Origin: an uncultured Verrucomicrobiota bacterium
Lineage (GTDB): Bacteria > Verrucomicrobiota > Kiritimatiellia > JAAZAB01
NCBI GenBank assembly: GCA_964418925.1
Contig: CAYQNY010000002.1
Coordinates: 1-44,072 of the forward strand
Length of the DNA: 44,072 nt
Reading direction: 5' to 3'
Below, in pieces: positions 1 to 12,607 of the stretch (position 1 is the stretch's first letter; every line of letters starts with the position of its first letter). The notes under the pieces are model-generated. The model saw only the letters and a program-made list of their open reading frames with translations. It was not told where the DNA came from and searched no databases. A program made the translations under genes and the position numbers.

Positions 1-1
1 G

Positions 2-475
2 CAACTGGCTACCCGCCGCTGGAAGCGTCCCCTTTACCTGGCTACCGCGGAAGTGAAGGATGAGGAAATGGCCCAACGGGTTCAGGCGCACCGCCAGGCG
101 CGCGGCGCGCGCTGGTGGTGTGTCGAGGAACCGCTGGATATTGCCAATGTAATCACCAACAGCACGGCTGATACCGACGGTATCCTGGTGGACTGCCTGA
201 CACTCTGGCTTTCCAATGTTCTCCTGCAGGAAGGCGAGGATACCTATAAGAAACGCCGACAGGCCCTGCTGGACGCAGTGCGGAATATCCACCGGAACCT
301 GATCCTGGTCGGCAATGAAGTCGGCATGGGTATTGTTCCCGAGCATGAGTTGGGCCGGAAATTCCGGGACCTGGCCGGCTGGCTCCATCAGGACCTGGCG
401 GTCGCCATGGACACTGTTGTTCTGGTTGTCGCCGGCCTGCCGCTGGCGTTGAAAGGAACTTTGCCGAAGTGCTAA
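2..475 (+). CDS. cobU: adenosylcobinamide kinase / adenosylcobinamide-phosphate guanylyltransferase (CobU/CobP), 5'-truncated by window edge
   Basis: The reading frame is open from nt 2 (QLATRRWKRPLYLATAEVKDEEM...) into ORF 53..475. The C-terminal two-thirds of the CobU family is recognisable ('ILVDCLTLWLSN', 'LVGNEVGMGIVPE', 'GRKFRDLAGWLHQ'). The P-loop N-terminus lies upstream of the window. cobT and cobS follow. Confidence 0.85.
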   Translation, partial: QLATRRWKRPLYLATAEVKDEEMAQRVQAHRQARGARWWCVEEPLDIANVITNSTADTDGILVDCLTLWLSNVLLQEGEDTYKKRRQALLDAVRNIHRNLILVGNEVGMGIVPEHELGRKFRDLAGWLHQDLAVAMDTVVLVVAGLPLALKGTLPKC

Positions 476-567
476 GAATGTCCGGTGTAAGCGGTCGGTT
501 GGGTTTATGCGATATCTTAATGTGGGAGCCGCTTTAATGCGGCGATTATTGAAATGGTTTATAGTAA

Positions 568-819
568 ATGTACCCCCATTCTTCCAATTTGCGTTTACAT
601 CGTGTGAAAGACATTCCGTCAACCTTTTTTATTACCAAATGTGTATGGCCTCGTATTCCTGTACTCAATCCAGATTTACGATCTATGGTCTGCCGTGCTT
701 TTCTTTTCTCAGCAGAAAGTCAGCGAATTGTTTTACGGGCTTTCGTAGTCATGCCCGATCACTGGCATATGCTCATGGGATTGCTCCATGATTGGACATT
801 GCCGCTCGAAAAAGATTAA
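568..819 (+). pseudogene. truncated RAYT-like / IS200-like HUH tyrosine transposase relic (N-terminal ~83 aa only)
   Basis: Carries the 'STFFITKCVWPR' first-strand motif and the 'VVMPDHWHMLMG' HUH motif typical of Y1 transposases/RAYTs. The ORF stops about 20 aa after the HUH, so the Tyr-bearing C-terminal half is absent. No continuation exists in other frames before cobT. The segment is visibly AT-richer than the flanking cob genes. GC hairpins flank it at 528..543, 833..849 and 864..879. Confidence 0.55.
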
Positions 820-906
820 AATATACATCGCGACCCCGCTTTGCGGGGTAAACATAAAGCTTGCCATGCTTCAGCATGGTCGCTCCCACATTACATAAGG
901 AAAACC

Positions 907-1971
907 ATGAAACATCATGATTTGTTCAATCAGACGATTCAAGCCATCCACCCCATCTCCCCCGCCTGGATCGATAAGGCTTTTCAGCGCCTGGATTCGC
1001 TGACCAAGCCCCGGCGCAGTCTGGGATACCTGGAGGACATAGCGGCGCGGATGGCGGCTATTCTTCAACAGGAGCGGCCCCGCATTGCACGCAAACGCGT
1101 GTTTGTGTTTGTCGGCGACCATAAAGTGGTGGAGGAAGGTGTAAGCGCATACCCCTCGGCAGTTACCACCTTGATGGTAAAAAATTTCCTGGCCGGAGGC
1201 GCCGCCATCAATGTGCTGGCTAAACAGGCCGGAGCCAGGATTGAAGTAATCGACATTGGCATGGCGGAAGATCTGGGCCGTGTGAAGGGATTACAAAGGC
1301 ATAATATCAAGCGGGGCGCCGACAATATTGCCCGAGGTCCGGCCATGACTGTCAAAGAAACTTTAAGAGCTATTGCGGTGGGCATTAGACGGGCTAACAA
1401 GGCGGCGGATCGCAAGGTTACTTTGATGGCCACCGGTGAGATGGGGATCGGCAACACCACGCCGGCGGCGGCTCTCTTTTCCGTCTGGTTGAACCTGCCG
1501 GCCGATCAGACCGTTGGCGCCGGCACAGGGCTTGATCCCCAGGGTGTCAGCAAAAAGGTCCGGGTGGTGGAAACCGCCATCGCAGAGAATCGTTCCCGCT
1601 GTGCGGACGCCCTCAACACGCTGGCAGCCCTGGGCGGCTTGGAAATCGCCGGGATTTGCGGTCTATGCCTTGGCGCCGCCGCCCGCGCCCGGCCGGTGGT
1701 GGTGGACGGATTCATTTCCAGCGCCGGCGCCCTGGCCGCGATGCGGATCTGTCCGGCGGTCAAGGACTACCTTTTTTTCGCCCACATGAGCGCCGAAACC
1801 GGTCATCATAAATTTTTTGAGCAGGAAAAGCTCCGGCCGGTGGTGGATCTTGGCATGCGTTTGGGCGAAGGCACCGGCGCGGCTATAGCCATGCAAATTA
1901 TCGAGGATGCCGTCGCCATCTATAATGACATGGCAACATTCGCCAACGCGGGTATCACGCCCGGCGCGTGA
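907..1971 (+). CDS. cobT: nicotinate-nucleotide--dimethylbenzimidazole phosphoribosyltransferase
   Basis: ATG at 907 is preceded by 'aaggaaaacc'; the track ORF begins at an upstream TTG at 841. Length is 354 aa. CobT-family motifs are present: 'GEMGIGNTTPAAAL', 'GAGTGLD', 'DLGMRLGEGTGAA'. Confidence 0.9.
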   Translation: MKHHDLFNQTIQAIHPISPAWIDKAFQRLDSLTKPRRSLGYLEDIAARMAAILQQERPRIARKRVFVFVGDHKVVEEGVSAYPSAVTTLMVKNFLAGGAAINVLAKQAGARIEVIDIGMAEDLGRVKGLQRHNIKRGADNIARGPAMTVKETLRAIAVGIRRANKAADRKVTLMATGEMGIGNTTPAAALFSVWLNLPADQTVGAGTGLDPQGVSKKVRVVETAIAENRSRCADALNTLAALGGLEIAGICGLCLGAAARARPVVVDGFISSAGALAAMRICPAVKDYLFFAHMSAETGHHKFFEQEKLRPVVDLGMRLGEGTGAAIAMQIIEDAVAIYNDMATFANAGITPGA

Positions 1972-2036
1972 CAGGACAGTAACCAGTAAGCAGTTAACGA
2001 AGAACAACGAACCAAGCACCTGGAACATCATTGATT

Positions 2037-2807
2037 ATGTTTTTCGACGGATTCATCACGGCGTTCAAGACACTCACCATTGTCCCCCTGCCGGGCAAGG
2101 AATCAGGACCGATCGCCAATTCCCTGTATTACTTCCCGCTGGTCGGAGCGTTGATCGGCGGGGTGGTGACGCTGGCAGCCTGGCTGATCGGCGATCTCCT
2201 CGCATGGACAATGGGCGCCGGTATCGTCGGCATCGTGATCGCCACCTGGATCACGGGCGGCCTGCATCTTGACGGCTTGGGCGATGTTGCTGACGCCTAT
2301 AGTCCCGGCCGGACGCGGAATCGCATGCTCGAAATCATGAAGGACCCTCACATGGGGGCCTTCGGTGTGACCGGGATTGTCTGCGTTCTGCTGGTGAAGA
2401 CCATCGCCCTGGCACACCTGGTCCAGCTGGGCCAATGGGTCTGGATTCCAATACCCTTTATCCTCTCACGGACGATCATGGTTCTGCCGGCCGTGCTACT
2501 TCCTTATGCCCGGCTGGAAGGCGGCACCGCCGAAATGTTTGTTAACAACGCCCGAGCGTCTCATTTGATTGTAGCCGGACTCCTGGCCCTGGGATGCTGC
2601 GCCCTGTTGACCGGAATCGCCGGCGGGATAATTTTTGCCTTCGCGCTCATTATAGGCTACGGATTAGTCCGCTGGATGAAGCATATTTTCGGTGGTGTGA
2701 CCGGTGACCTGTTGGGAATGTCCAATGAGATGATCGAAACTATTCTGCTTTTTGCGTTGGCGGCTGGCAGGCCGTATTTGGATGCTATCCATGCATGCAT
2801 GTTCTGA
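2037..2807 (+). CDS. cobS: adenosylcobinamide-GDP ribazoletransferase (cobalamin synthase)
   Basis: ATG at 2037, with TTG at 2031 as an alternative start. Polytopic membrane protein with 'LTIVPLP', 'YFPLVGALIGG' and 'GGLHLDGLGDVADA', characteristic of CobS. Confidence 0.9.
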   Translation: MFFDGFITAFKTLTIVPLPGKESGPIANSLYYFPLVGALIGGVVTLAAWLIGDLLAWTMGAGIVGIVIATWITGGLHLDGLGDVADAYSPGRTRNRMLEIMKDPHMGAFGVTGIVCVLLVKTIALAHLVQLGQWVWIPIPFILSRTIMVLPAVLLPYARLEGGTAEMFVNNARASHLIVAGLLALGCCALLTGIAGGIIFAFALIIGYGLVRWMKHIFGGVTGDLLGMSNEMIETILLFALAAGRPYLDAIHACMF

Positions 2808-2848
2808 CAGTCATTCATCCAGGCTCCCGATCCCAATCGATGGCAACT

Positions 2849-2900
2849 GCCGTTCTGGCGAACGGCCTGCCTTCGCTCGGATAGCTTCGGCGGGCAGGCC
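2849..2900. repeat. REP-like GC hairpins in the cobS-btuF spacer
   Basis: Hairpin 1 is 'gccgttc-tggc-gaacggc' (2849..2866). Hairpin 2 pairs 'ggcctgcc' with 'ggcaggcc' (2864..2900). The same gccgttc/gaacggc stem recurs in the element at 20566..20646. Confidence 0.45.
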
Positions 2901-2943
2901 CCTACATAATACATACCGTGAAAATAAAGAATGTAACGGTAGG

Positions 2944-3981
2944 CTGATTCCGCCCAAGGACGGACAAGCCCGCCGCTGGCGGAAATTTCTCCTGCATTGC
3001 GAATGGATACATATCGCTGGTCTGGCTTGCCTGTGCTTGCTCACGGGATGTTATCGCGCGCCGGAACCGGTTCCCGGCTCCACCGGAGACCACGCGCCAC
3101 GCGTGGTCTCCCTGGCGCCCAGTCTGACGGAAATCATCTGCGCCCTTGGCGCGGAACAACAGCTCATCGGCCGTACCAGCGCCTGCGATTATCCGCCGGA
3201 TAAGATCAAGGCTATTCCTGTGATCGGCGGATTTGGCGCGCCGTCCCTGGATCTTCTGCTGAAAATCCAACCGACGCTGGTTTTGGACGTGGATTTGCGG
3301 GATGCATCCGTGGGCAAAATGATTGATCAAATCGGTCTGCAACATCAGCGGATTGCCTGCTCAACCGTGGACGATATTCCCCGGGCCATTACCCAGGTCG
3401 GACATCTTTTGCATGCCACAGCGTCAGCCTGTGCCCTGGCCGATCCGATTTGTCGCCGTATCGTTGCTCTGCGCCGGGAAGCGGAACGCCGCCAAGCTTC
3501 CGGTCAGCCACTGCCGTCCATTTTCGTTGAAATCTGGGACAGCCCGCTGACTACGGTTGGCAAAGACTCTTTTATTTCCGACCTGATTTCCCTGGCCGGC
3601 GGCCGCAACCTCGGCGATGAAGTCGCGCATAAAGATTACTTTTCGGTTTCATCTGAATGGGTGATTGCCCGGGACCCGGACGTGATTTTATGCCTCTATA
3701 TGACCAAGAACAGAGAAACCAGAGGTTTACCCGCCGTAGCCAGGCCTGCCCAACGAAGCCTTGGCGAAGTTGGGAGCGAAGGGACGGCGAGGGCGGATTC
3801 ACAATTGACCGCGGCTTGGAGCCGGGTGGCGGCGCGAACGGGTTGGGTGGGAATCAAGGCGGTGAAAAATCATCGCGTTTACGGCGAACTGGATGATAGC
3901 GTGATCCTGCGGCCGGGTCCCCGGATTCTGGAAGGCATTGAAGCACTGCGGCAGTGCATCCTTCTGCCGGCTGGAACCTAA
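2944..3981 (+). CDS. btuF: periplasmic cobalamin/siderophore-type substrate-binding lipoprotein (BtuF-like); start codon uncertain
   Basis: PBP family motifs are present: 'RVVSLAPSLTEIICALG', 'IGRTSACDYP', 'LKIQPTLVL', 'DPDVIL', 'AVKNHRVY'. A lipobox 'LLTGC' places the Cys at 3049. There is no in-frame ATG between 2791 and the lipobox, so a non-ATG start (CTG 2944, ATT 2947 or CTG 2992) is inferred. The end coordinate is firm. Confidence 0.75.
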   Translation: MIPPKDGQARRWRKFLLHCEWIHIAGLACLCLLTGCYRAPEPVPGSTGDHAPRVVSLAPSLTEIICALGAEQQLIGRTSACDYPPDKIKAIPVIGGFGAPSLDLLLKIQPTLVLDVDLRDASVGKMIDQIGLQHQRIACSTVDDIPRAITQVGHLLHATASACALADPICRRIVALRREAERRQASGQPLPSIFVEIWDSPLTTVGKDSFISDLISLAGGRNLGDEVAHKDYFSVSSEWVIARDPDVILCLYMTKNRETRGLPAVARPAQRSLGEVGSEGTARADSQLTAAWSRVAARTGWVGIKAVKNHRVYGELDDSVILRPGPRILEGIEALRQCILLPAGT

Positions 3982-4042
3982 GAACACTTACCCCCTGCCG
4001 ACTTGTACCCAGAGGAATGCCATCGCATCCAGAAATGCCATC

Positions 4043-4067
4043 CCCCTGTCGGCTTGTCCGGCAGGGG
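4043..4067. terminator. 10-bp-stem hairpin between convergent btuF and the tandem HUH gene
   Basis: 'cccctgtcgg-cttgt-ccggcagggg', with one G-T pair. No U-tract on either side. A 14/16 direct copy of its left arm sits at 3991..4006. It could be a terminator or a subterminal IS-type hairpin. Confidence 0.3.
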
Positions 4068-4068
4068 A

Positions 4069-4980
4069 TCATGACTGTCTGGCAATACGCCGGATGACCT
4101 CCAGATTATACTCACTGAACGTCCCCGCATAATACCCGTCCTGCCATGCCCGACACCCTGCCGCCCGCGCCAGCCCGTTCTGAAACGCCAGCGCAATATC
4201 TTCCGGCGACCGCTCGATATTACCACGCAGAGCCATGTGCACATGATCCGGCATCACGGACAAGGCCACAATCCGGTGTCCGTTCTCTACAGCCACTCCC
4301 AGGGCCGCATCTCGTAACGAGCCCAGCCGCTCGGGATTCGTGATGCGAAATCGGTTGGCAACCACCAGCACTAGATGCAAATTATACCAGTACCGGCCGC
4401 TATTGGACTCCGCGGGCTCGGCCAAGAGCGTGGCATCGCGCACCACGGTAAATTGCCGCATGATCTCCCGAAAACGCGGATCGGCGAAGTCCTCCTTGCC
4501 GACCTGCCCGTGGATATAATTTCCGACTACATCGTCGGTGTTCTCGCCAAGACTGCGGAATGCCACTTTGCGGCTGAACTTAACCGGCACGTCTTTCTTC
4601 CGGAGCGCATATTGCAGTCGCCCTTTAACCCGCATGCAGAAAAACACTGGGCTGATTTGCGGCGTGACGCTGAAAAGAAGCTGAACCTTCTCTGCTGTGG
4701 CGTGGAATGTTAGCAGGTTCAGGCCGTCCGGCTTCCAAATGGGCGCGGTCGCGCGGGCAACGGCCACGGTCTGCGGCGAGAGTCGCGTGTCTTGGGTCGG
4801 CCAGCCGGTCCAGTCGTAGTGGAGGGTGTATGTAGGGTGGACGTTATGGCTGGTGTATCGCTCCGGCCGGACAAGCCGGCCGGGCGCGTTGCTCGGTGGG
4901 TCTGCTCGACCGGGTATGTTCTCCGGCGGGCTTGCCCCGCCGGGAACGAAGATTATTCTCCGACTATCACGCTTGGACAT
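4069..4980 (-). CDS. tandem (two-domain) IS200/IS605-type HUH-Y1 transposase-like protein
   Basis: Half 1 (aa ~48-160): 'YTLHYDWTGW', 'AEKVQLLFSV', 'RVKGRLQYALRK', 'FRSLGENTDDVVGNYIHGQ'. Half 2 (aa ~196-303): 'YWYNLHLVLVV', 'SVMPDHVHMALRG', 'AWQDGYYAGTFSEYNLEVIRRIARQS'. Both follow the TnpA(IS200) order of motifs. The gene lies antisense between btuF and btuC. Confidence 0.6.
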   Translation of the reverse strand: MSKRDSRRIIFVPGGASPPENIPGRADPPSNAPGRLVRPERYTSHNVHPTYTLHYDWTGWPTQDTRLSPQTVAVARATAPIWKPDGLNLLTFHATAEKVQLLFSVTPQISPVFFCMRVKGRLQYALRKKDVPVKFSRKVAFRSLGENTDDVVGNYIHGQVGKEDFADPRFREIMRQFTVVRDATLLAEPAESNSGRYWYNLHLVLVVANRFRITNPERLGSLRDAALGVAVENGHRIVALSVMPDHVHMALRGNIERSPEDIALAFQNGLARAAGCRAWQDGYYAGTFSEYNLEVIRRIARQS

Positions 4981-5200
4981 GTTTTCAGGCCTCTTGCTTG
5001 CTGCTCACCCTTTACCGCGCCGCCCATTATGCGTTCCTTCCGGCACAATATCAATGCCTCTCCCCGGCCATACCTAAGATTGAGGCAAAAGGCGCTTGAT
5101 TTATTGATTGTATATAAGGTTGATCTCACTATGCTTACTGGTGTTTGGGTGCTATTCAGGTATAAATTTCCGAAGGGAAGCTGCCTTGGGACGGCGAGGG

Positions 5201-6184
5201 ATGATGGAATTACGAATGAAACGATCCGTCATAGTGTGGTGGCTGTTCCTGCTGTCGCCCCTGGTCCTGGGCGCCTGCGTCCTGGCAGGCGCGACAGGCA
5301 TCAGCGGCTTGGACTGGCACACGGCGACGGGACGCGCGATCTTCTGGCTGAGGGTTCACCGGGTGGCCGCAGGATTCGTGATCGGAGCGGGGCTTTCCTG
5401 TTCCGGCGTCGTTCTGCAGGCGCTGTTGCGCAACCCGTTGGCCGATCCGTATATTCTGGGCGTGAGCAGTGGCGCCGGACTGGGCGCCGCCCTGGTCATC
5501 GTGTCGGGCTTTGCCGTCGCCGGCCTGCTGCCCGTCAGCGCGTTTCTCGCCGCGATCCTCACGCTGAGCGTAGTGATTCTCCTGGCGCGCAACGGTGGTG
5601 CTCCGTCGATTTACGGTCTCCTGCTCAGCGGGGTCATCGTCAGTTCGATGTGCTCGAGCATGCTGATGCTGATTATTTCCCTGGCGTCGGCGGAAGGTCT
5701 GCACAGTATTACCTGGTGGATGCTCGGGAATCTGCAGATCGTTTCCTCGTCCCTGCTGATGATCAGCGGAACGCTGATTATTCTGGGAGCGCTCGGAATC
5801 TGGGGGCTGGCCCGCAATCTCAACGCGCTGACCCTGGGCCGCGAGATGGCGCATCACCTCGGCATCCGCACGGGCGTTGCCGTTACCCTGGCCCTGGCCC
5901 TGGCTACCCTGACGACGGCCGCCTCGGTGGGGCTGGCGGGACTGATCGGTTTTGTCGGCCTGATTGTCCCGCATCTCATGCGCAGTCTGGTGGGACCTGA
6001 TCACCGCCGGCTGGTCCCCGCGGCGGCCCTCGCCGGCGGTTGGTTCCTGGCCCTGTGCGATGCGCTGGCCCGCACGGCTCTCGCCCCGGTTGAGATTCCA
6101 GTGGGTGTAATCACCGCTTTGATCGGCGGCCCCTTTTTTCTTATCCTGCTCCGGCGCCGGCGTAAACACGGGTGGGTGGAATGA
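5201..6184 (+). CDS. btuC: FecCD-family ABC permease (BtuC-like)
   Basis: ATG at 5201 follows 'ggcgaggg'. Multi-TM protein with 'LGVSSGAGLGAAL', 'TLGREMAHHLGI', 'GLIGFVGLIVPHLMR' and 'GGPFFLILLRRR'. Confidence 0.87.
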   Translation: MMELRMKRSVIVWWLFLLSPLVLGACVLAGATGISGLDWHTATGRAIFWLRVHRVAAGFVIGAGLSCSGVVLQALLRNPLADPYILGVSSGAGLGAALVIVSGFAVAGLLPVSAFLAAILTLSVVILLARNGGAPSIYGLLLSGVIVSSMCSSMLMLIISLASAEGLHSITWWMLGNLQIVSSSLLMISGTLIILGALGIWGLARNLNALTLGREMAHHLGIRTGVAVTLALALATLTTAASVGLAGLIGFVGLIVPHLMRSLVGPDHRRLVPAAALAGGWFLALCDALARTALAPVEIPVGVITALIGGPFFLILLRRRRKHGWVE

Positions 6185-7467
6185 ACCAGGCTTTTGCATT
6201 GGAACAGGTATCGGCCGGCTATCAGCGGACCCCTATTTTCCGGAATCTGCAACTGGCGGTGACTGAAGGCGAAATGGTGGCGTTGCTCGGTCCCAACGGC
6301 GCCGGCAAGTCCACCTTGTTACGCGTGCTCACCGGCCTGCTGACGCCGACGGCCGGCACTATCCGCCTGTTTGGCCAGGATGTGAATAAACTGCGCGCCG
6401 CGGAGCGCGCCCGGCTCATCGCCGTGGTGCCGCAGGAACTAAAAACCCCGATGGCCTATACCGTCGCGGAACTGGTGCTGATGGGGCGCACCGCCCTGTT
6501 GAATCCCTGGCGTCAGCCCTCTGCCGTCGATAGCCAGGTGGTGGAACGCGCCATGGTCTACACGGATGTGAGCGATCTCAGCAACCGTTCCCTGGACGCG
6601 CTCAGCGGCGGGGAAAAACAGCGGGCCGTCATTGCCATGGCCCTGGCCCAGGAACCCCGCATAATAGTGATGGACGAACCCACCACGCATCTTGATTTGA
6701 ACCACTCGCTTGAAATCATGCAAATCATCGAGCGCCTGAACCGGGAACAGGGCGTGACAGTTATGATGACCAGCCATGATCTGAACATGGCGGCCGAGTT
6801 CTGTCAGCGACTGATCCTGCTGGACCAGGGACAGGTGGTGGCCGACGGCACGCCCGAGGCCGTGCTGAAGGAGGAGATTTTGCGGGAGGTGTATCACTGC
6901 GACCTGCGCGTCCGGAAAGACACGCCAACCGGCGCGCTGTTTGTGGCGCCCGCCCGCCGCCCGCCACTGCCCCGGCCGGCGACTGCCATGCGGGTGCACG
7001 TCATTGCCGGCGGCGGCAGTGGCGGGGAGCTGCTGCGCCAACTGGCCCTGTGCGGCTATCGCGTCACTTGCGGTGTGCTGAATCAAATGGATTCCGATGC
7101 CCGGGCGGCAGAAGCCCTGGGCATGGTGCAAATCATGGAAAAACCGTTTTCTCCTATTGGCCCCGAGGCGTTGAGCCAGGCCAAACATCTGGCAACGGAC
7201 GCTGCGGCGGTCATTCTCTGTGAAGTGCCGTTTGGTCCCGGCAATCTCATCAACCTGGAAATCGCCGAGGACGCGCTCCAAAAGGGTATTCCCGTGCTGA
7301 TCAACGATCGCAACCTGGAAAAACGGGATTATACAGCAGGCCAGAACGTCGTCGCCAGGATCCGGCAGTTAATTCAATCCGGCGCCATCTGCTGGCGCCA
7401 GGGCAACGTAGCCCTCACTGCCCTGGCCCGCTTATCCGGCAGTGCCCCCCGGCAATCATCGCCATAA
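6181..7467 (+). CDS. btuD: ABC transporter ATPase (BtuD/FepC-like) fused to a ~160-aa C-terminal domain of unknown function
   Basis: ATG at 6181 overlaps the btuC stop (ATGA). Motifs: Walker A 'GPNGAGKST', signature 'LSGGEKQR', Walker B 'IIVMDEPTTHLD', H-loop 'TSHD'. After a Pro-rich linker ('RRPPLPRPA') an extra alpha/beta-looking domain starts at 'MRVHVIAGGGSGGELL' (nt 6988). Confidence 0.85.
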   Translation: MNQAFALEQVSAGYQRTPIFRNLQLAVTEGEMVALLGPNGAGKSTLLRVLTGLLTPTAGTIRLFGQDVNKLRAAERARLIAVVPQELKTPMAYTVAELVLMGRTALLNPWRQPSAVDSQVVERAMVYTDVSDLSNRSLDALSGGEKQRAVIAMALAQEPRIIVMDEPTTHLDLNHSLEIMQIIERLNREQGVTVMMTSHDLNMAAEFCQRLILLDQGQVVADGTPEAVLKEEILREVYHCDLRVRKDTPTGALFVAPARRPPLPRPATAMRVHVIAGGGSGGELLRQLALCGYRVTCGVLNQMDSDARAAEALGMVQIMEKPFSPIGPEALSQAKHLATDAAAVILCEVPFGPGNLINLEIAEDALQKGIPVLINDRNLEKRDYTAGQNVVARIRQLIQSGAICWRQGNVALTALARLSGSAPRQSSP

Positions 7468-7486
7468 GGAATTTTTTGTCCCTAAC

Positions 7487-7737
7487 GAGACTGTCGAAAA
7501 ATATGCCCAAGAACGGCCACGACAGAGCCCTTCGACAGGCTCAGGGCCTTGAGCAAAGTCGAAACGGCGTGGCCCTCCAAAATACATGTAAAACAGGCAT
7601 TATTATAATGAAGGGACGCGTCCCGCCCAACGCGGGACAAGCTTTGTTTACCACGCGTTTCGCGTGGTCGCGTGCTACTCTGCGAAGTAAAGCCTTTGCT
7701 ATGCAGCACAAGTCTGGATGGGTTATTCGACAGTCTC
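7487..7737. repeat. ~250-bp composite palindromic element bounded by perfect 12-bp inverted repeats
   Basis: 'gagactgtcgaa' (7487..7498) is the reverse complement of 'ttcgacagtctc' (7726..7737). The interior carries a REP-like unit 'ttcgacaggctcagggccttgagcaaagtcgaaacggc' (7531..7568). It also has hairpins 'gtcccgc-ccaac-gcgggac' (7620..7638) and 'accacgcg-ttt-cgcgtggt' (7650..7668). Located between convergent btuD and epmA. Confidence 0.45.
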
Positions 7738-7833
7738 AAAGAAACGCTTCGCAGGCTTAATATCCGGTTCGCTGAACTCGACAACCAGATCAACATCGCT
7801 TGTTGGGTTGCGGGCAACAACCAACCTTAAGTA

Positions 7834-8772
7834 CTACCGGAACGGCAGGACCTCATCCAACGAGCCGGCGCCGGCCAGGAGCATGACCAGCCGGTCCACG
7901 CCCAAGGCAATACCCGCCGCGGGCGGCATCCCTGCCTCCAGGGCGGCAAGAAAATCCTCATCCAGCGGATAGACCGGTTGGCCCAGCGCCCGGCGCTCGG
8001 CGGCGCAGGCTTCGAACCGCGCGCGCTGTTCCACCGGATCGGTCAGCTCGCTGAACGCGTTGGCCAGCTCCAGGCCGTCGATATAGAGTTCCCAGCGTTC
8101 GGCTACCTGAGGATTGTCCGGCTTGCGGCGGGCCAGGGCAGCAGCGGCCGCCGGGTAATCCATCAGCACCACCGGATGCTCCAGCGCAAGGCGCGGCTCA
8201 ACCTTGTTGACCAGGTCCAAATCGAATCGTTCGGCATCGAACGCCGTCACCGGATCCCATCCGGCCAAGGAGGTAAACGCTTCCGCCACCGTAAATATAT
8301 CCCAGACCGGCATTAACTCCACCTGCGCGCGCCGTATTTTTCCGCCAGGGGCGGATCCGCTCAGGCTTGACAGCCACGTTCGCCCGATGGCGGCCTCGGC
8401 CACCGCGGCGATCAGAGCCTTGGCATCCGCCAGCATCGTCAGGTAATCGGCGTTGGCACGATACCATTCCAGCAGGGTGAATTCCGGATGATGCCGGTCG
8501 CCCCGCTCGTGCTGACGAAAACAAGGTCCTATCTGAAACACGCGTTCACAGCCAGCCGCCAGCAGACGCTTCATGTGCAGTTCGGGCGACGTCCGGAGAT
8601 AGGCGTCACCGGCCGGGATGGCGTCAATATGCAGTTCCATGGCTGGCGCCGGAATGCACACCGGGGTCTCGATTTCCAGGAAATCACGATCGTAAAAAAA
8701 CCGGCGGATGGCCCGCAGAATGGCGGCGCGGAGCTCTAATACCGGCTTGAAAGTTGTCAGGGGCATGGGCAT
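7834..8772 (-). CDS. epmA: elongation factor P--(R)-beta-lysine ligase (PoxA/GenX, truncated LysRS paralogue)
   Basis: 312 aa. Class-II aaRS core without an anticodon-binding domain: 'FLEIETP', 'YLRTSPELHMKRLLAAG', 'FQIGPCFRQHERGDRHHPEFTLLEWY', 'GIALGVDRLVML'. Confidence 0.8.
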   Translation of the reverse strand: MPMPLTTFKPVLELRAAILRAIRRFFYDRDFLEIETPVCIPAPAMELHIDAIPAGDAYLRTSPELHMKRLLAAGCERVFQIGPCFRQHERGDRHHPEFTLLEWYRANADYLTMLADAKALIAAVAEAAIGRTWLSSLSGSAPGGKIRRAQVELMPVWDIFTVAEAFTSLAGWDPVTAFDAERFDLDLVNKVEPRLALEHPVVLMDYPAAAAALARRKPDNPQVAERWELYIDGLELANAFSELTDPVEQRARFEACAAERRALGQPVYPLDEDFLAALEAGMPPAAGIALGVDRLVMLLAGAGSLDEVLPFR

Positions 8773-9108
8773 AAATTACGGATTAACATCCGGCAATCTC
8801 GCTTAACGTAGCCTGCGGCCACAACGAAAACTTTTACCCGCGAAACCCGCGCAATAACATTACAATAAAGCATGGAACAATGGCATTTTTGCCCGCACTT
8901 TCGCGCCGGTCCCGCCATAACCCTGAGCGACGGCGGATGTTTCGTGGGCTGAATTCCGCTTTACAGGTTAGCTCCTAAGACTTTAATTGTTTGGGTTCAT
9001 GCCTGATGCAGACCCGCCTCTGGCGGGAAAGGAGTCAAACAAATCCGACTGAGTATTGCAAGCTATACGTGTTGCGGGTGTTCGGTGTTCAGTTACATTG
9101 AGCGTCGC

Positions 9109-9837
9109 TCAATTTTTCGGCGGATGGTCTGCCACCAGCTGGTTGACATACGTAAGCGATGCAAAGGTGCCGGCGTCACTCCACCAGCCTTTCATCATGT
9201 CGAATTTCATTGCACCCAGGCGGATATAGGTGTTGTTGACATCGGTGATTTCCAATTCGCCGCGGCCGCTGGGCTTGCAGGTTCGGATGATATCAAAGAC
9301 CCGGGCATCATAGAAATAAATACCGGTCACGGCGATACGTGATTTCGGATGGGCCGGTTTTTCCTCAATGGACACCACCCGGTCGCCCGCTACTTCGGCC
9401 ACGCCAAAGCGCTCCGGATCGCTGACCTCTTTGCCCACAATACGGGCGCCCTGTTCCTGGGCCCGGAAGGCGTCGGCATAAGGTTGCAGCGGATCCTCAA
9501 AGATATTGTCGCCGAGAATGACGGCCACGGGATCACTATGGCAGAAATTTTCAGCCATGCTCAGCGCCTGGGCAATGCCTCCGGCCTCATCCTGGACCTT
9601 GTACGTGAACCGGCATCCGAATTCACGCCCTGATCCAAGCAGATTCACCATGTCGCCCATGTGATCGGTGCCGGTAACCACGAGAATTTCATCAATCCCG
9701 GCGCCGGTCAATTTGGCGATCGGATGAAAAATCATCGGTTTCTGCCCGATGGGCAGTAAATGCTTATTGGTGACCTTGGTCAGCGGCATCAGCCGCGACC
9801 CGGTTCCACCGGCGAGAACTATGCCTTTCAAATTCAT
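9109..9837 (-). CDS. sugar-phosphate nucleotidyltransferase (short RmlA/glucose-1-phosphate thymidylyltransferase-like)
   Basis: Start taken at 'MNLKGIVLAGGTGSRLMPLT' (ATG at 9837); the signature G-x-G-T-R-L loop sits at the N-terminus. 'EKPAHPKSRIAVTGIYFYD' and 'GELEITDV' are typical. The upstream 45 codons of the track ORF look non-coding. Confidence 0.8.
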   Translation of the reverse strand: MNLKGIVLAGGTGSRLMPLTKVTNKHLLPIGQKPMIFHPIAKLTGAGIDEILVVTGTDHMGDMVNLLGSGREFGCRFTYKVQDEAGGIAQALSMAENFCHSDPVAVILGDNIFEDPLQPYADAFRAQEQGARIVGKEVSDPERFGVAEVAGDRVVSIEEKPAHPKSRIAVTGIYFYDARVFDIIRTCKPSGRGELEITDVNNTYIRLGAMKFDMMKGWWSDAGTFASLTYVNQLVADHPPKN

Positions 9838-9959
9838 AAGCCGATATTGTAAACCAACCGAAAAGCAAAAGGAATATTTTTTTTCTGAATTTTCCCTTGA
9901 CTCCTGCGGGGCATCATGAAACACTGCCTGCCATATTTGTTCCTTGAGAATTCGAGTAT

Positions 9960-10135
9960 GTGTGGAAGGCAAACGGAAGTCTGTGAAAAACAGACGCGGT
10001 TGCGCCGCTGTAACCGGATGCCACTTGCTTCAAAGCAAGTGGCGTGCAAAAACTCACTAGCCACTGATCGCGGATGCGGTCGGGAAGGCAAGCGAGCAGG
10101 ATGGAATCCGGGAGCCAGAAGACGTTGCCCTTCGC
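9960..10135 (+). promoter_or_regulatory. cobalamin (B12) riboswitch aptamer
   Basis: Core 'GGAAGUCUGUGAAAAACAGACGCGGUUGCGCCGCUGUAACC' matches the conserved GGGAA..GGUGAAA..GC.G..CGCCACUGUAA core. 'GCCACUG....GGGAAGGC' is present. A B12-box-like 'AGCCAGAAGACGUUGCC' lies at 10113..10129. Situated upstream of B12-uptake genes. Confidence 0.8.
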
Positions 10136-10208
10136 ACTCATCGCGAAAATGCCGGGTGGCATTTTCACTCTTTCGCCGGTAAGGAGGATGAGGGGTCCGT
10201 ATTGTATT

Positions 10209-10257
10209 CAAAGCCTTCAGGTTCCTTGGGTGGGAGTCTGAAGGCTTTTTTGTTTTG
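10209..10257 (+). terminator. intrinsic terminator (riboswitch expression platform)
   Basis: Stem 'aaagccttcag' pairs with 'ctgaaggcttt' and is followed by 'tttttgtttt'. A 9-bp hairpin 'gaaaatgcc-gggt-ggcattttc' at 10145..10166 lies between the B12 box and this terminator. Confidence 0.75.
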
Positions 10258-10284
10258 TATAAACGGCTATACGGGCATGTTCGT

Positions 10285-10623
10285 ATGCTCAAAATTCTTA
10301 TATTCGGTTGCCTTTCCATAAGCATTTGTTCGCGTGTTCTCGCAGAGGCCGCAGTTCCCGGACGAATTGTATGCCTTGCGCCCAGCTATACTGAAACTCT
10401 GATTGAACTGGGATTACAAGACAAGATCGTGGGCGTGGTGACTTCTTCCGATTATCTGGAGGAAGTAAAGCACGCGGAACGGGTTGGCTTGTGGATCAAG
10501 CCCAATATTGAAAAAATTATTGCGCTTAAACCGGATATTGTCCTCGCCACCGCCTTGGCTGGGCAACAATCCATCGTCAAGACCGACCGTGTCCACGACG
10601 ACATAGGCGCTGAATCTGTTTAG
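10285..10623 (+). pseudogene. N-terminal fragment (~112 aa) of a BtuF-like periplasmic binding protein
   Basis: A signal-like 'MLKILIFGCLSISICSRVLA' is followed by 'RIVCLAPSYTETLIELG', 'KIVGV' and 'LKPDIVLA'. The ORF ends after about 120 aa, whereas the paralogue in this window (2944..3981) is ~345 aa. A 17-bp imperfect hairpin at 10624..10659 follows the stop. Confidence 0.55.
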
Positions 10624-10696
10624 CCTGGCTTATTCACGACTTGTCGCGAATAATCCAGGTTAGGAGTTAAATTATATAAGGAAAAGGAAGCGTTTC

Positions 10697-12607
10697 ATGA
10701 AACTGAGAATGCCAATAATGACGGTGGCGATTAGTATTATGATGGTATTAGTAGTTTTACAAAACAATTCAGCGGAAGAGTCAAATGCGGTGAAAGAGGA
10801 ATCCAAACCGTCCGCGCCGGTTGTCACGCAGGCGGTTTCCGAAGCCGACACCATTGTTGTGACCGCGACCAGAATTCCTCAATCCATCCGGGATGTCGGC
10901 GTAAGCGTTTCGGTGGTCTCGAGAGAAAGAATTGAAGAGTTGAACGCGCAAAACGTTGGCGAGGTTTTGAAGGAAGTCACCGACGCGCGAGTGAAGAGTT
11001 ATGGCTCCATGGGAGCGGGGAGTGATATAACCCTGCGCGGTTCCACCGCCAAGCAGGTCCTGGTTATGGTGGATGGCAGGCCGGTTAATCTTTCCTCCCT
11101 GGGGATGGCCGATCTTTCCATGTACCCGGTTGATCAGATTGAAAGGATAGAGGTAATCAGGGGACCGGCCTCCGTTCTTTACGGCGCCGGCGCCATGGCC
11201 GGAGTAGTCAATATTATCACCCGCGACCCGCCGGAAAAACTTCAGACGGATTTGTCGGCCTCGTATGGCACTAAAAATACGCGCATTATTCAATTGGATA
11301 ACGGGGCACGAATAGGCGATCTCGGCTACCTGATCACGGCCAGTCAGAATGCATCCGACGGATGGAGAGAAAACAGCGCTTGCGACGGCTATCATGTTTT
11401 CGGGAAGTTGGATTATGATATGACTCAGGAATCGCGGCTAACGCTGAACTCAGGATTTTCGCGGCAGAACAAGGGCGTTCCCGGTTCCACCAGCTGGCAG
11501 ACGCCCAATGCCAAGCAGTATGACCGGCAGTACTGGGTTGACCTCACCCATAAATACGAGTTTGAAACAAAAACATGGCTCACCAGCAAGGCTTTCCTGA
11601 ATCAAAACTGGCAGGAATATAAGGACCCGGACAGTTTTACCGACGACATCAGCCGGAACCAGAAAGCGGGATTGGATATCCAGCAGACTTTGCCGTTGGG
11701 CGAAAAACAGTTACTTCTGGGAGGAATTTACCTTGAAAATGATTATGTGAACATTAAAGACGCCCAAGATGTTTCCCGGATCGGGGGCAATCGCGATCTC
11801 TTCACCGGCGCGGTTTTCCTGCAGGACGAAATCTCGTTTCTGGAACGGTTTATCGTGACGCCCGGACTGCGCTGCGATATTCAGTCAAAGTGGGGGGCCG
11901 AACTCAGTCCAAAGATCAGCGGCCTTTACAAGATTACGGATATAACCAGACTGAAAGCCTCGATCGGCCGCGGATTCAGGGCGCCGACGGTTGACGATCT
12001 CTACTGGCGGGATGACTATTCCGAGGGGAACCCGGATTTAAAGCCGGAGGAATCCTTCAGTTACGATGCCGGAATTCAACAACAGTTGGGAGAGAAAAGC
12101 ATGTTGCAGATCTCCCTGTTCCAAAGCCATATGAAAAACCTGATCGCCTGGTTTGATGACGGTACAGGCATATACAAGGCACAAAATGTCAACGATGCCT
12201 TCCTGCAGGGTGTGGAAATGGAGTTTACCGCGCAACTCACTACAGGAATCTCCGGCGCTGTGAATTACACGCTGCTTGACGCGCAGGACACAAGCGGCGC
12301 CTATGAGGACAAGACCCTGACTTACCGGCCGAAGAACCAAGTGGGATGCCGGTTGGGATATCAAAGCACCTGGGGGTTGAAATTGAATGTGAATGCCGAG
12401 TACACCGATTCGGTTTACATTGACCGGGACAATACGAAAGAATTGGGCGGCTTTATGACCCTGGGTGCCTACGCGGAACAAATCGTAGTCAAGGATGTGA
12501 AGATTTTTGCCCGCGGTGACAATCTTCTTGATAAGCAATATCAGCTGATCAACGGCTATCCCATGCCGGGCTTAAGCGTTATGGGCGGCGTAAAGGCAAC
12601 GTTTTAA
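10697..12607 (+). CDS. btuB: TonB-dependent outer-membrane receptor (BtuB-like)
   Basis: Signal peptide present. TonB box 'DTIVVTATR'. Plug motifs 'VSVVSRERIEE' and 'ITLRGSTAKQVLVMVDGRPVN'. C-terminal '...GGVKATF' ends in an aromatic residue. 636 aa. Lies directly downstream of the B12 riboswitch. Confidence 0.88.
   Translation: MKLRMPIMTVAISIMMVLVVLQNNSAEESNAVKEESKPSAPVVTQAVSEADTIVVTATRIPQSIRDVGVSVSVVSRERIEELNAQNVGEVLKEVTDARVKSYGSMGAGSDITLRGSTAKQVLVMVDGRPVNLSSLGMADLSMYPVDQIERIEVIRGPASVLYGAGAMAGVVNIITRDPPEKLQTDLSASYGTKNTRIIQLDNGARIGDLGYLITASQNASDGWRENSACDGYHVFGKLDYDMTQESRLTLNSGFSRQNKGVPGSTSWQTPNAKQYDRQYWVDLTHKYEFETKTWLTSKAFLNQNWQEYKDPDSFTDDISRNQKAGLDIQQTLPLGEKQLLLGGIYLENDYVNIKDAQDVSRIGGNRDLFTGAVFLQDEISFLERFIVTPGLRCDIQSKWGAELSPKISGLYKITDITRLKASIGRGFRAPTVDDLYWRDDYSEGNPDLKPEESFSYDAGIQQQLGEKSMLQISLFQSHMKNLIAWFDDGTGIYKAQNVNDAFLQGVEMEFTAQLTTGISGAVNYTLLDAQDTSGAYEDKTLTYRPKNQVGCRLGYQSTWGLKLNVNAEYTDSVYIDRDNTKELGGFMTLGAYAEQIVVKDVKIFARGDNLLDKQYQLINGYPMPGLSVMGGVKATF

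Follow-up and report, generated by a model that had tools for sequence, protein, structure and literature searches.

The window analyzed in this study is a 44,072-nt stretch of DNA from an uncultured Verrucomicrobiota bacterium of the Kiritimatiellia (assembly GCA_964418925.1, contig CAYQNY010000002.1, positions 1 to 44,072). On its minus strand, at 4069..4980, it carries a gene for a 303-residue protein with two consecutive Y1 transposase (Y1_Tnp) domains, the first of which has kept the tyrosine (Tyr) helix and lost the HUH motif, and the second of which has kept a canonical HUH motif and lost the catalytic Tyr. We consider it probable that this tandem-Y1 protein is a natural single-chain pseudo-dimer of the IS200/IS605 type and the resident enzyme of a REPtron-like hairpin system, the geometry of its active site, its catalysis and its hairpin substrate being the parts of this reading that we infer. 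Neither the tandem-Y1 architecture nor its repeat family appears to have been described, and a literature search aimed at Y1/TnpA proteins of tandem, fused or pseudo-dimeric form brought up no description of one, only general classifications. The features of the gene and protein are as follows:

4069..4980, minus strand: tandem Y1_Tnp open reading frame (ORF) of the IS200-type HUH/Tyr kind, a single chain of 303 residues with an ATG start (ORF call, profiles, model)
4861..4980, minus strand: N-terminal extension, residues 1-40, predicted to be disordered, poorly conserved and mostly REP-like hairpins translated in frame
4486..4857, minus strand: domain 1, residues 42-165, Y1_Tnp fold with the Tyr helix kept and the HUH motif lost (profiles)
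4681..4692, minus strand: degenerate HUH slot of domain 1, E97-K98-V99-Q100, with Q100 invariant (profile alignment)
4504..4518, minus strand: Y155-I-H-G-Q159, predicted catalytic Tyr and metal-ligand Gln on an alphaD-like helix, both invariant (alignments, model)
4399..4485, minus strand: inter-domain linker, residues 166-194, with conserved FADPRF and FTV motifs (alignment, model)
4072..4398, minus strand: domain 2, residues 195-303, Y1_Tnp fold with a canonical HUH motif and the catalytic Tyr absent (profiles)
4237..4245, minus strand: HUH motif H246-V247-H248, both His invariant (profile alignments)
4084..4086, minus strand: I299, the catalytic-Tyr slot of domain 2, a variable column that lies beyond the C-terminus of some homologues

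The ORF is uninterrupted in one reading frame, and by sequence inspection the ATG at 4978-4980 is the sole in-frame ATG, GTG or TTG start 5' of the invariant Y42. The Pfam model of Y1_Tnp, PF01797, matched the whole 303-residue protein in two stretches at 60.6 bits (gathering score 23), the C-terminal half on its own gave 45.9 bits (E 7e-12), and the NCBIfam IS200 model NF033573 scored the protein at 57.7 bits, just over its cut-off of 55. Three alignments were used, namely an alignment of homologues (A1), a half-1 profile from 32 homologous sequences (A2) and a half-2 profile (A3). The half-1 profile matched ISHp608 TnpA over the whole domain (E 4e-5), placing K98 and Q100 at H64 and H66, Y155 at the nucleophile Y127 and Q159 at the metal ligand Q131, and the half-2 profile matched IS200-type TnpA (E 1e-11) with H246/H248 as the HUH motif and I299 in the Tyr slot. 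An earlier reading of the window from its letters alone (below, the sequence-only reading) had claimed two TnpA(IS200)-like domains, and the two Pfam stretches, the profile-to-PDB alignments and a two-module AlphaFold2 model bear this out. That reading had also placed Y155 (codon 4516..4518, minus strand), the EKVQ slot and H246-V247-H248 correctly, and the residue that it took for a non-Tyr in the Tyr slot of domain 2 is indeed so by profile. The profiles were also inspected for a catalytic Tyr in half 2 or a His pair in half 1, and neither was found.

The AlphaFold2 model, computed from a 34-sequence alignment (predicted local distance difference test (pLDDT) 83.9, predicted template modelling (pTM) score 0.81), is one compact body in which residues 1-34 are disordered and are followed by two beta-alpha-beta-beta-alpha-beta-alpha modules, with Y155 on helix 149-160. 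Its top PDB matches in Foldseek were the TnpA proteins of ISDra2, Sulfolobus IS200 and IS608/ISHp608, with template modelling (TM) scores of 0.78-0.82 to ISDra2 TnpA, and E. coli TnpA(REP) was a weaker match. In half 1, P107 aligns with the dimer-interface P73 of TnpA(IS608) and the KGR motif (K119-G120-R121) is invariant, and half 2 has kept a Thr that aligns with the conserved beta5 Thr of TnpA(IS608); this Pro and this Thr are dimer-interface determinants, and E. coli TnpA(REP) is without either (PMC3479197). The other invariant Tyr residues, Y284 and Y291, are in the beta-strand/loop region of domain 2, off any catalytic helix.

In IS200/IS605 elements TnpA is an obligate dimer whose two sites each combine the HUH motif of one subunit with the Tyr helix of its partner, and during strand transfer the two Tyr helices change places. 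The TnpA(REP) of E. coli is a one-site monomer, and the route of REP movement is unresolved (PMC3479197; PMC8266576). We propose that an ancestral tnpA was duplicated in tandem and the copies fused, and that the two fused halves then lost complementary catalytic parts. The 303-residue protein would be a covalent pseudo-dimer with a single composite site, predicted from the residue pattern, in which domain 2 supplies the metal ligands H246 and H248 and the alphaD-like helix of domain 1 supplies the nucleophile Y155 and the third ligand Q159, as in the TnpA homodimer, where the site is likewise assembled in 'trans'. The other site would be dead (K98/Q100, with no Tyr partner) and presumably has been retained as a scaffold or DNA-binding surface, a role to which the KGR motif and P73-equivalent Pro of half 1 and the beta5 Thr of half 2 may relate. 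Such an enzyme would bind the hairpin in single-stranded DNA (ssDNA), cut near it via a 5'-phosphotyrosine intermediate and then reseal or transfer the strand, one site at a time, as has been proposed for monomeric E. coli TnpA(REP). Its mode of action would be that of a RAYT, its construction that of an IS200-like dimer.

A protein search identified 971 proteins at E <= 1e-3, and the top 120 homologues among the matches listed were almost all 250-370 residues long, with coverage of at least 85% and identity of 50-100%. Invariant in A1 were Y155, Q159, Q100, H246 and H248, plus R117, K119, G120, R121 and L122 of half 1, and the set of H246, H248, Y155 and Q159 remained invariant down to ~43% identity, with the other catalytic set gone. 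A genome scan gave 170 relatives, the best 80 of which, from 77 genomes, were analyzed as loci. All 68 intact genes had the YxxxQ motif in half 1 (68/68), and in 66 of the 68 the HxH motif was confined to half 2, which together with the invariant motifs in A1 favors the earlier suggestion of a fused pseudo-heterodimer that would keep one composite site. In half 1 the ratios of non-synonymous to synonymous substitution rates (dN/dS) versus eight relatives were 0.11-0.31, and in half 2 they were 0.08-0.15. Both halves are under purifying selection, so that the 'degenerate' half 1 is also maintained by selection. Half 1 alone, searched with phmmer against 1.84 billion representatives, returned only 250 clusters at 50% identity; stand-alone half-1 genes, as would befit a two-gene ancestor, were sought in this way, and the short matches that were inspected were truncated or frameshifted tandem proteins, a state in which some database entries of the family are found.

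The relatives in the genome scan are mainly from the Planctomycetota, Verrucomicrobiota, Kiritimatiellia and Lentisphaerota/Victivallales, that is, from the Planctomycetes-Verrucomicrobia-Chlamydiae (PVC) superphylum, with a few in metagenome-assembled genomes (MAGs) labelled Deltaproteobacteria, Myxococcales or Thermodesulfobacteriota. There was about one locus per genome, and the paralogues in the three genomes with two loci were only 50-58% identical, numbers that have to be read with the caveat that most of these genomes are fragmented MAGs. No relatives were found on the viral contigs scanned, and no tnpB or other mobile-element gene was present in the six neighborhoods with gene tables. 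Along with the retention of the same site in two other species, described below, these findings speak for the claim of the sequence-only reading that the gene is domesticated rather than part of an ordinary insertion sequence (IS); many identical copies with ordinary IS ends were looked for, and about one copy per genome was found instead. A conserved gene neighborhood was considered and ruled out, the contexts being different and made up of unrelated housekeeping genes except in the btuF/btuC clade.

The tandem-Y1 gene of the window is flanked on both sides by REP-like hairpins:

3990..4006, plus strand: REP-like remnant (5' arm and loop) just past the btuF stop codon (sequence)
4043..4067, plus strand: REP-like hairpin CCCCTGTCGG-CTTGT-CCGGCAGGGG (ssDNA fold -10.6 kcal/mol, z -3.1)
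4863..4883, minus strand: REP-like hairpin CCGGCCGG-CTTGT-CCGGCCGG (ssDNA fold -15.1 kcal/mol, z -4.2)
4918..4954, plus strand: REP-like hairpin GTTC-t-CCGGCGGG-CTTGC-CCCGCCGG-GAAC, core 4923..4943 (ssDNA fold -14.5 kcal/mol, z -4.8)

The earlier report of a hairpin on one side only, at 4043..4067, therefore has to be corrected. This copy is directly 3' of the stop codon, with its 3' tail overlapping the stop and last codons, and its orientation is opposite to that of the upstream copy nearest the gene, at 4863..4883, which stops 2 nt short of the conserved protein core. The conserved tail of the third hairpin, AAGATT, is at 4949-4954. Both upstream hairpins (4863..4883 and 4923..4943) fall within the 5' end of the ORF as annotated, where their translation reads 'PPEN...PGRLV'. 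In close relatives the N-terminal extension contains from one to seven in-frame 30-nt units, and many distant relatives are without the extension, a stop codon being present 7-10 codons before Y42. Between the remnant and the downstream hairpin there is also a short direct repeat, AGGAATGCCATC / AGAAATGCCATC, at 4013-4024 and 4031-4042 (plus strand).

Conserved hairpins around homologues were sought and found, at 5-6 per kb next to the gene. When hairpins whose loop was of the CT[TC]G[TC] type, or complementary to it, were counted over 82 loci, their density was 6.0 per kb in the 250 nt upstream of the gene, 4.7 per kb in the 250 nt downstream and no higher than 0.35 per kb beyond 500 nt, and their forward:reverse orientation was 88:27 upstream and 26:66 downstream. 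The consensus of 345 copies is 5'-cG[A/C]CCCC-N6-CTYGY-N6'-GG[A/T]G-nnn-AAG[A/T]TT, in which a GC-rich stem of 8-10 bp with a variable, covarying sequence encloses a CTTGY or CTCGY loop and is interrupted at its ninth position, near the foot, by a conserved mismatch, either C·A or C·T. The inner eight stem pairs are ~99% paired, with many compensatory pair types, and the loop, foot and tail are fixed between genomes. The AAG[A/T]TT tail, the flanks and the mismatch are conserved across every position and orientation class, and the tail can therefore not be a coding artefact. Distal clusters of hairpins are present in four loci (L017, L021, L022 and L035). In L035, from a Planctomycetia MAG, the ~2 kb upstream of the gene (1900-4000) consists of 68-nt tandem units with one REP-like hairpin each, nested in a 440-nt higher-order repeat. 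In L040 each side of the gene (~250 nt) has the same trio of different hairpins, with order and orientation also shared, and the two trios form a ~170-nt direct repeat that brackets the gene.

Copies of the hairpin are also found without the gene. A metagenome scan for exact CCTGCCGGCTTGNCCGGCAGG gave at least 120 stretches (544 kb), and among the 120 listed the tandem-Y1 gene was present in only four and absent from the other 116; no other Y1-type protein was found in these 544 kb of hairpin-selected DNA. An extended signature is common to the 157 gene-less copies, with G at -12 in 92%, T/A at the mismatch position, and the tail A, G and T in 88-92%. They are often paired, in tandem or inverted, at 60-70 nt, and several of the metagenome stretches also contain a second subtype of the window's hairpins. 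On these contigs the hairpin repeats are repetitive, palindromic and mostly outside long ORFs, as 35% of the gene-less copies are in ORFs of at least 200 residues, compared with the 81% of the sequence that such ORFs cover. Within 150 nt of contig ends (L087-L206) there were 47 gene-less copies versus 12 expected, a four-fold enrichment which suggests that the hairpin family breaks short-read assemblies of its host bacteria. Based on the hairpins on both sides of the gene and the conserved, dispersed REP-like family to which they belong, we view the locus as a REPtron-like system and not as a lone nickase gene.

The history of the locus was apparent from comparison with close relatives, and centers on one segment:

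3982..5200, no strand: ~1.2-kb segment from the btuF stop to the probable btuC start, missing from close relatives (gap of 4-23 nt)

The gene is antisense between a btuF-like gene (Peripla_BP_2, ending at 3981) and btuC/btuD-like genes (FecCD, ABC_tran), in an operon that also holds cobU, cobT and cobS, so that the domain calls of its neighbors agree with the sequence-only reading in putting it inside btuF-btuCD; its GC content of 0.59-0.60 equals that of the neighbors and is host-like, as had been stated. That it splits an otherwise contiguous B12 operon is confirmed by the empty sites of L212 and L213 (BtuC 80-81% identical), in which cobU-cobT-cobS-btuF-btuC-btuD are contiguous and btuF and btuC are separated by 4 and 23 nt versus ~1.2 kb in the window. 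Two other species-level MAGs (L008 and L031) have a gene 76% identical in the same place and orientation, with BtuF, BtuC, BtuD and CobT neighbors 61-86% identical to those of the window, and across the three species the upstream hairpin nearest the gene shows 100% identity. Since the site is occupied in three species and empty in L212 and L213, the gene-plus-hairpin unit was inserted once at btuF/btuC and then vertically inherited. The insertion junctions and any target duplication are blurred, the BtuF C-termini and spacers being too diverged between filled and empty sites. The syntenic copy of L031 (4185-4977) was recovered in two tblastn segments with an in-frame stop, owing either to decay of the gene or to a fault in the assembly.

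The tandem-Y1 protein is a member of the Y1_Tnp superfamily, within which it fails defining features of the IS200/IS605 IS, of class 2 RAYTs and of class 3 TnpA(Y1). Like the TnpA proteins of ISHp608, ISDra2 and Sulfolobus IS200, it has the TnpA fold and profile in each half, the HUH and Y-x-x-x-Q motifs with Gln as third metal ligand, a predicted site drawn from the HUH of one subunit or domain and the Tyr of the other, and a putative hairpin ssDNA substrate. However, it is a 303-residue fusion with one predicted live and one dead site, whereas TnpA has ~130-155 residues and both motifs and forms a homodimer with two equivalent sites, and the two-helix swap would be impossible with one Tyr. 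Its gene is single-copy, stays at the same site across species and has no tnpB in view, where IS have several near-identical copies, and its hairpins are mostly inverted, in arrays and also far from the gene, where IS ends are same-strand left and right hairpins.

The resemblance to RAYTs and their REPtrons (E. coli yafM type; classes 2.2-2.8, PMC6006769) is in the single-copy, housekeeping-like gene, in the flanking cognate palindromes, which are often inverted and may likewise be dispersed outside genes (as they are on metagenome contigs), in the one active site per protein (here predicted), and in the several REP subtypes per locus; the REPs inserted in frame in the gene are a feature of RAYT subclass 2.4 (PMC6006769). 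As in RAYTs, there is low copy number, host-gene-like evolution and no recent mobility seen, with one old insertion documented. In contrast to class 2 RAYTs, the protein scored 17.2 bits with NF047646 (cut-off 80), its motif is Y-[IL]-x-x-Q and not YxxxNP, and its repeats are without the GT[AG]G tag of RAYT REPs. A RAYT consists of one domain, is monomeric and folds back its own Tyr, whereas in the tandem-Y1 protein a second, degenerate domain would supply the Tyr. With class 3 TnpA(Y1) of Planctomycetes, Acidobacteria and Proteobacteria (PMC6006769), in part from the same phylum, it shares the IS200-like Tyr/Gln motif and flanking atypical secondary structures, possibly of high copy number, 'resembling both IS and REPtrons'. 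Class 3 proteins, however, have a median of 178 residues and carry NHVH together with Y-x4-Q in one domain, and the foot of their repeats is CnGA (PMC6006769); the tandem-Y1 protein has PDHVH and Y-x3-Q divided between two domains that total ~260 residues, and its repeats combine a CTTGY loop with a CCCC foot. The classification of TnpA(Y1) contains no tandem class, and 'unexpectedly long' proteins were explicitly discarded from it (PMC6006769). CGTC-tagged REPs, which occur in deep-branching phyla including Planctomycetes and for which a dedicated transposase is not known (PMC3733652), are likewise short palindromes, their stems being 8-9 bp and their loops 4-5 nt long, with brief tails left unpaired. 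Instead of CGTC and A/T-first stems, the repeats described here have a cGA/C 5' flank that leads into a CCCC foot, and a dedicated gene is clearly associated with them. Finally, Y2 HUH transposases (IS91, Helitron) have two catalytic Tyr in one motif beside a single HUH domain, and the tandem-Y1 protein has a single catalytic-slot Tyr, Y155.

Other explanations for the locus were also weighed. An autonomous, still mobile IS200/IS605-like IS, with a fused dimer as transposase and the flanking hairpins as its left and right ends, would account for the ~1.2-kb unit being an insertion relative to close relatives, for the genomic contexts that vary between lineages, for the patchy spread over PVC phyla and some Deltaproteobacteria, and for the passing of the NCBIfam IS200 cut-off (57.7 vs 55). 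We regard it as improbable given about one copy per genome with paralogues just 50-58% identical, the same site filled in three species whose neighboring genes have diverged by 14-39%, and hairpins that are found dispersed in gene-less stretches and that, as flanks, lie for the most part on opposite strands and number from 1 to >15, unlike the single-strand 'peel and paste' of one top strand; moreover, one Tyr and one HUH cannot perform the coordinated two-end helix-swap of TnpA dimers (PMC3479197). We attach a similarly low likelihood to the protein being inactive or strongly auto-inhibited and only binding hairpins, in a role such as regulation, nucleoid organization, or protection or termination at REP-like sites. 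A pure binder is not expected to hold a nucleophile, two His and a Gln invariant, yet exactly one full catalytic set (H246, H248, Y155 and Q159) is invariant to ~43% identity; on its side are the auto-inhibition and weak activity of E. coli TnpA(REP) (PMC3479197), the loss of half of the catalytic residues and the housekeeping-like behavior of the gene. It is less likely again that the hairpins are RNA-level or generic elements (terminators or mRNA stabilizers), or unrelated REPs gathered at a poorly expressed gene, with the protein acting elsewhere. The downstream copy does follow the stop codon directly, like a terminator, the upstream copies are within the mRNA, and REPs are known to cluster in permissive spacers, but the density next to the gene is at least 13-fold that beyond 500 nt over the 82 loci and several phyla, no T-tract follows the hairpins, their asymmetric features (mismatch and AAGWTT tail) are conserved in both orientations, and the tandem-Y1 protein is the sole Y1 protein in the 544 kb of hairpin-selected DNA. 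Intrinsic terminators were also rejected as an identity for the hairpins on the additional basis that a terminator scan gave no match at their positions. An annotation artefact, whether a read-through of two adjacent genes or a decaying pseudogene, might have been suspected from the weak Pfam score of half 1 and the truncated or frameshifted database entries, but is effectively refuted by the single uninterrupted ORF, the near-full length of nearly all of the top 120 homologues listed (50-100% identity), the dN/dS well under 1 in both halves and the confident one-body model (pTM 0.81).

Several of our own results weigh against a pseudo-dimer with a REPtron-like hairpin system. The N-terminal half on its own gave 19.1 bits with PF01797 (E 0.0015), under the gathering score of 23, and the 32-sequence half-1 profile was built to strengthen this weaker half. 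A direct comparison of the two halves with hhalign was not significant (E 0.07-0.7), although the register was as expected, and it was dropped as proof of an internal duplication in favor of the profile-to-PDB alignments. The orientation of the hairpins is a bias only, with L040 and L209-L211 carrying same-orientation copies on both sides; stem pairing was a selection criterion for the hairpins, so the percentage paired is partly built in; and no further hairpin of this type was found in the remaining ~43 kb of the window. The dispersed copies are from metagenome contigs, and their link to a tandem-Y1 gene elsewhere in the respective genome is assumed. The unit was also inserted at btuF/btuC at least once and is thus not immobile. 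With these points included, the single-chain pseudo-dimer remains the reading that we prefer, and we lean, somewhat more cautiously, toward an undescribed class of REPtron in PVC bacteria and some Deltaproteobacteria, in which a duplicated, complementarily inactivated tnpA with one trans-type site would process or mobilize its own CTTGY hairpins, including the in-frame 5' copies.

If this proposal is true, the family is a natural experiment on the TnpA dimer, and the kept HUH motif together with the Tyr/Gln helix of the partner would independently support the trans site seen in crystals. A one-site enzyme on a single polypeptide would also be a way into how one-site Y1 enzymes spread REP-like repeats, and the tandem-Y1 protein is a candidate enzyme for an abundant, hitherto unannotated hairpin family in Planctomycetota and Verrucomicrobiota genomes. 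The present annotation of homologues ('transposase', 'RayT') conceals both the fused architecture and the repeat association, and the repeats, which appear to break metagenome assemblies, lead gene calling to produce spurious low-complexity peptides of the 'PGRLV/PPEN' kind. An orthogonal HUH tag may be a further use of a compact enzyme that would covalently join a defined ssDNA hairpin.

Upstream of the gene, the 220 nt from the Y1 start to the probable btuC start (4981-5200) are AT-richer and have no counterpart in the loci compared. Once the operon had been split, this stretch may have supplied btuCD with a new promoter. It contains two sites identified by consensus match only:

5026..5054, minus strand: promoter-like site TTGATA-17-CATAAT, upstream of the gene
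4990-4995, minus strand: AAGAGG, likely ribosome-binding site

Elsewhere in the operon, the 366-nt spacer between cobU and cobT (476-840, GC 0.446), which is 12-45 nt long in L212 and L213, holds an 83-residue ORF at 568-819 (plus strand; '...RAFVVMPDHWHMLMGL...') that weakly matches the N-terminal portion of Y1_Tnp, HUH motif included (Pfam Y1_Tnp E 0.0011, 19.5 bits, under the gathering score; half-2 profile E 8e-4). It is probably the remnant of a second insertion, of a single-domain Y1/RAYT-like gene. The only match in an Rfam search of 1-12000 was a cobalamin riboswitch (RF00174, 56.4 bits) at 9946-10146 (plus strand), a few kb downstream of the B12 salvage and uptake operon. The BtuD-like ABC ATPase (6172-7467, plus strand; 431 residues) has a C-terminal extension of ~170 residues beyond ABC_tran, which in relatives matches PF27219 (MJ0874).

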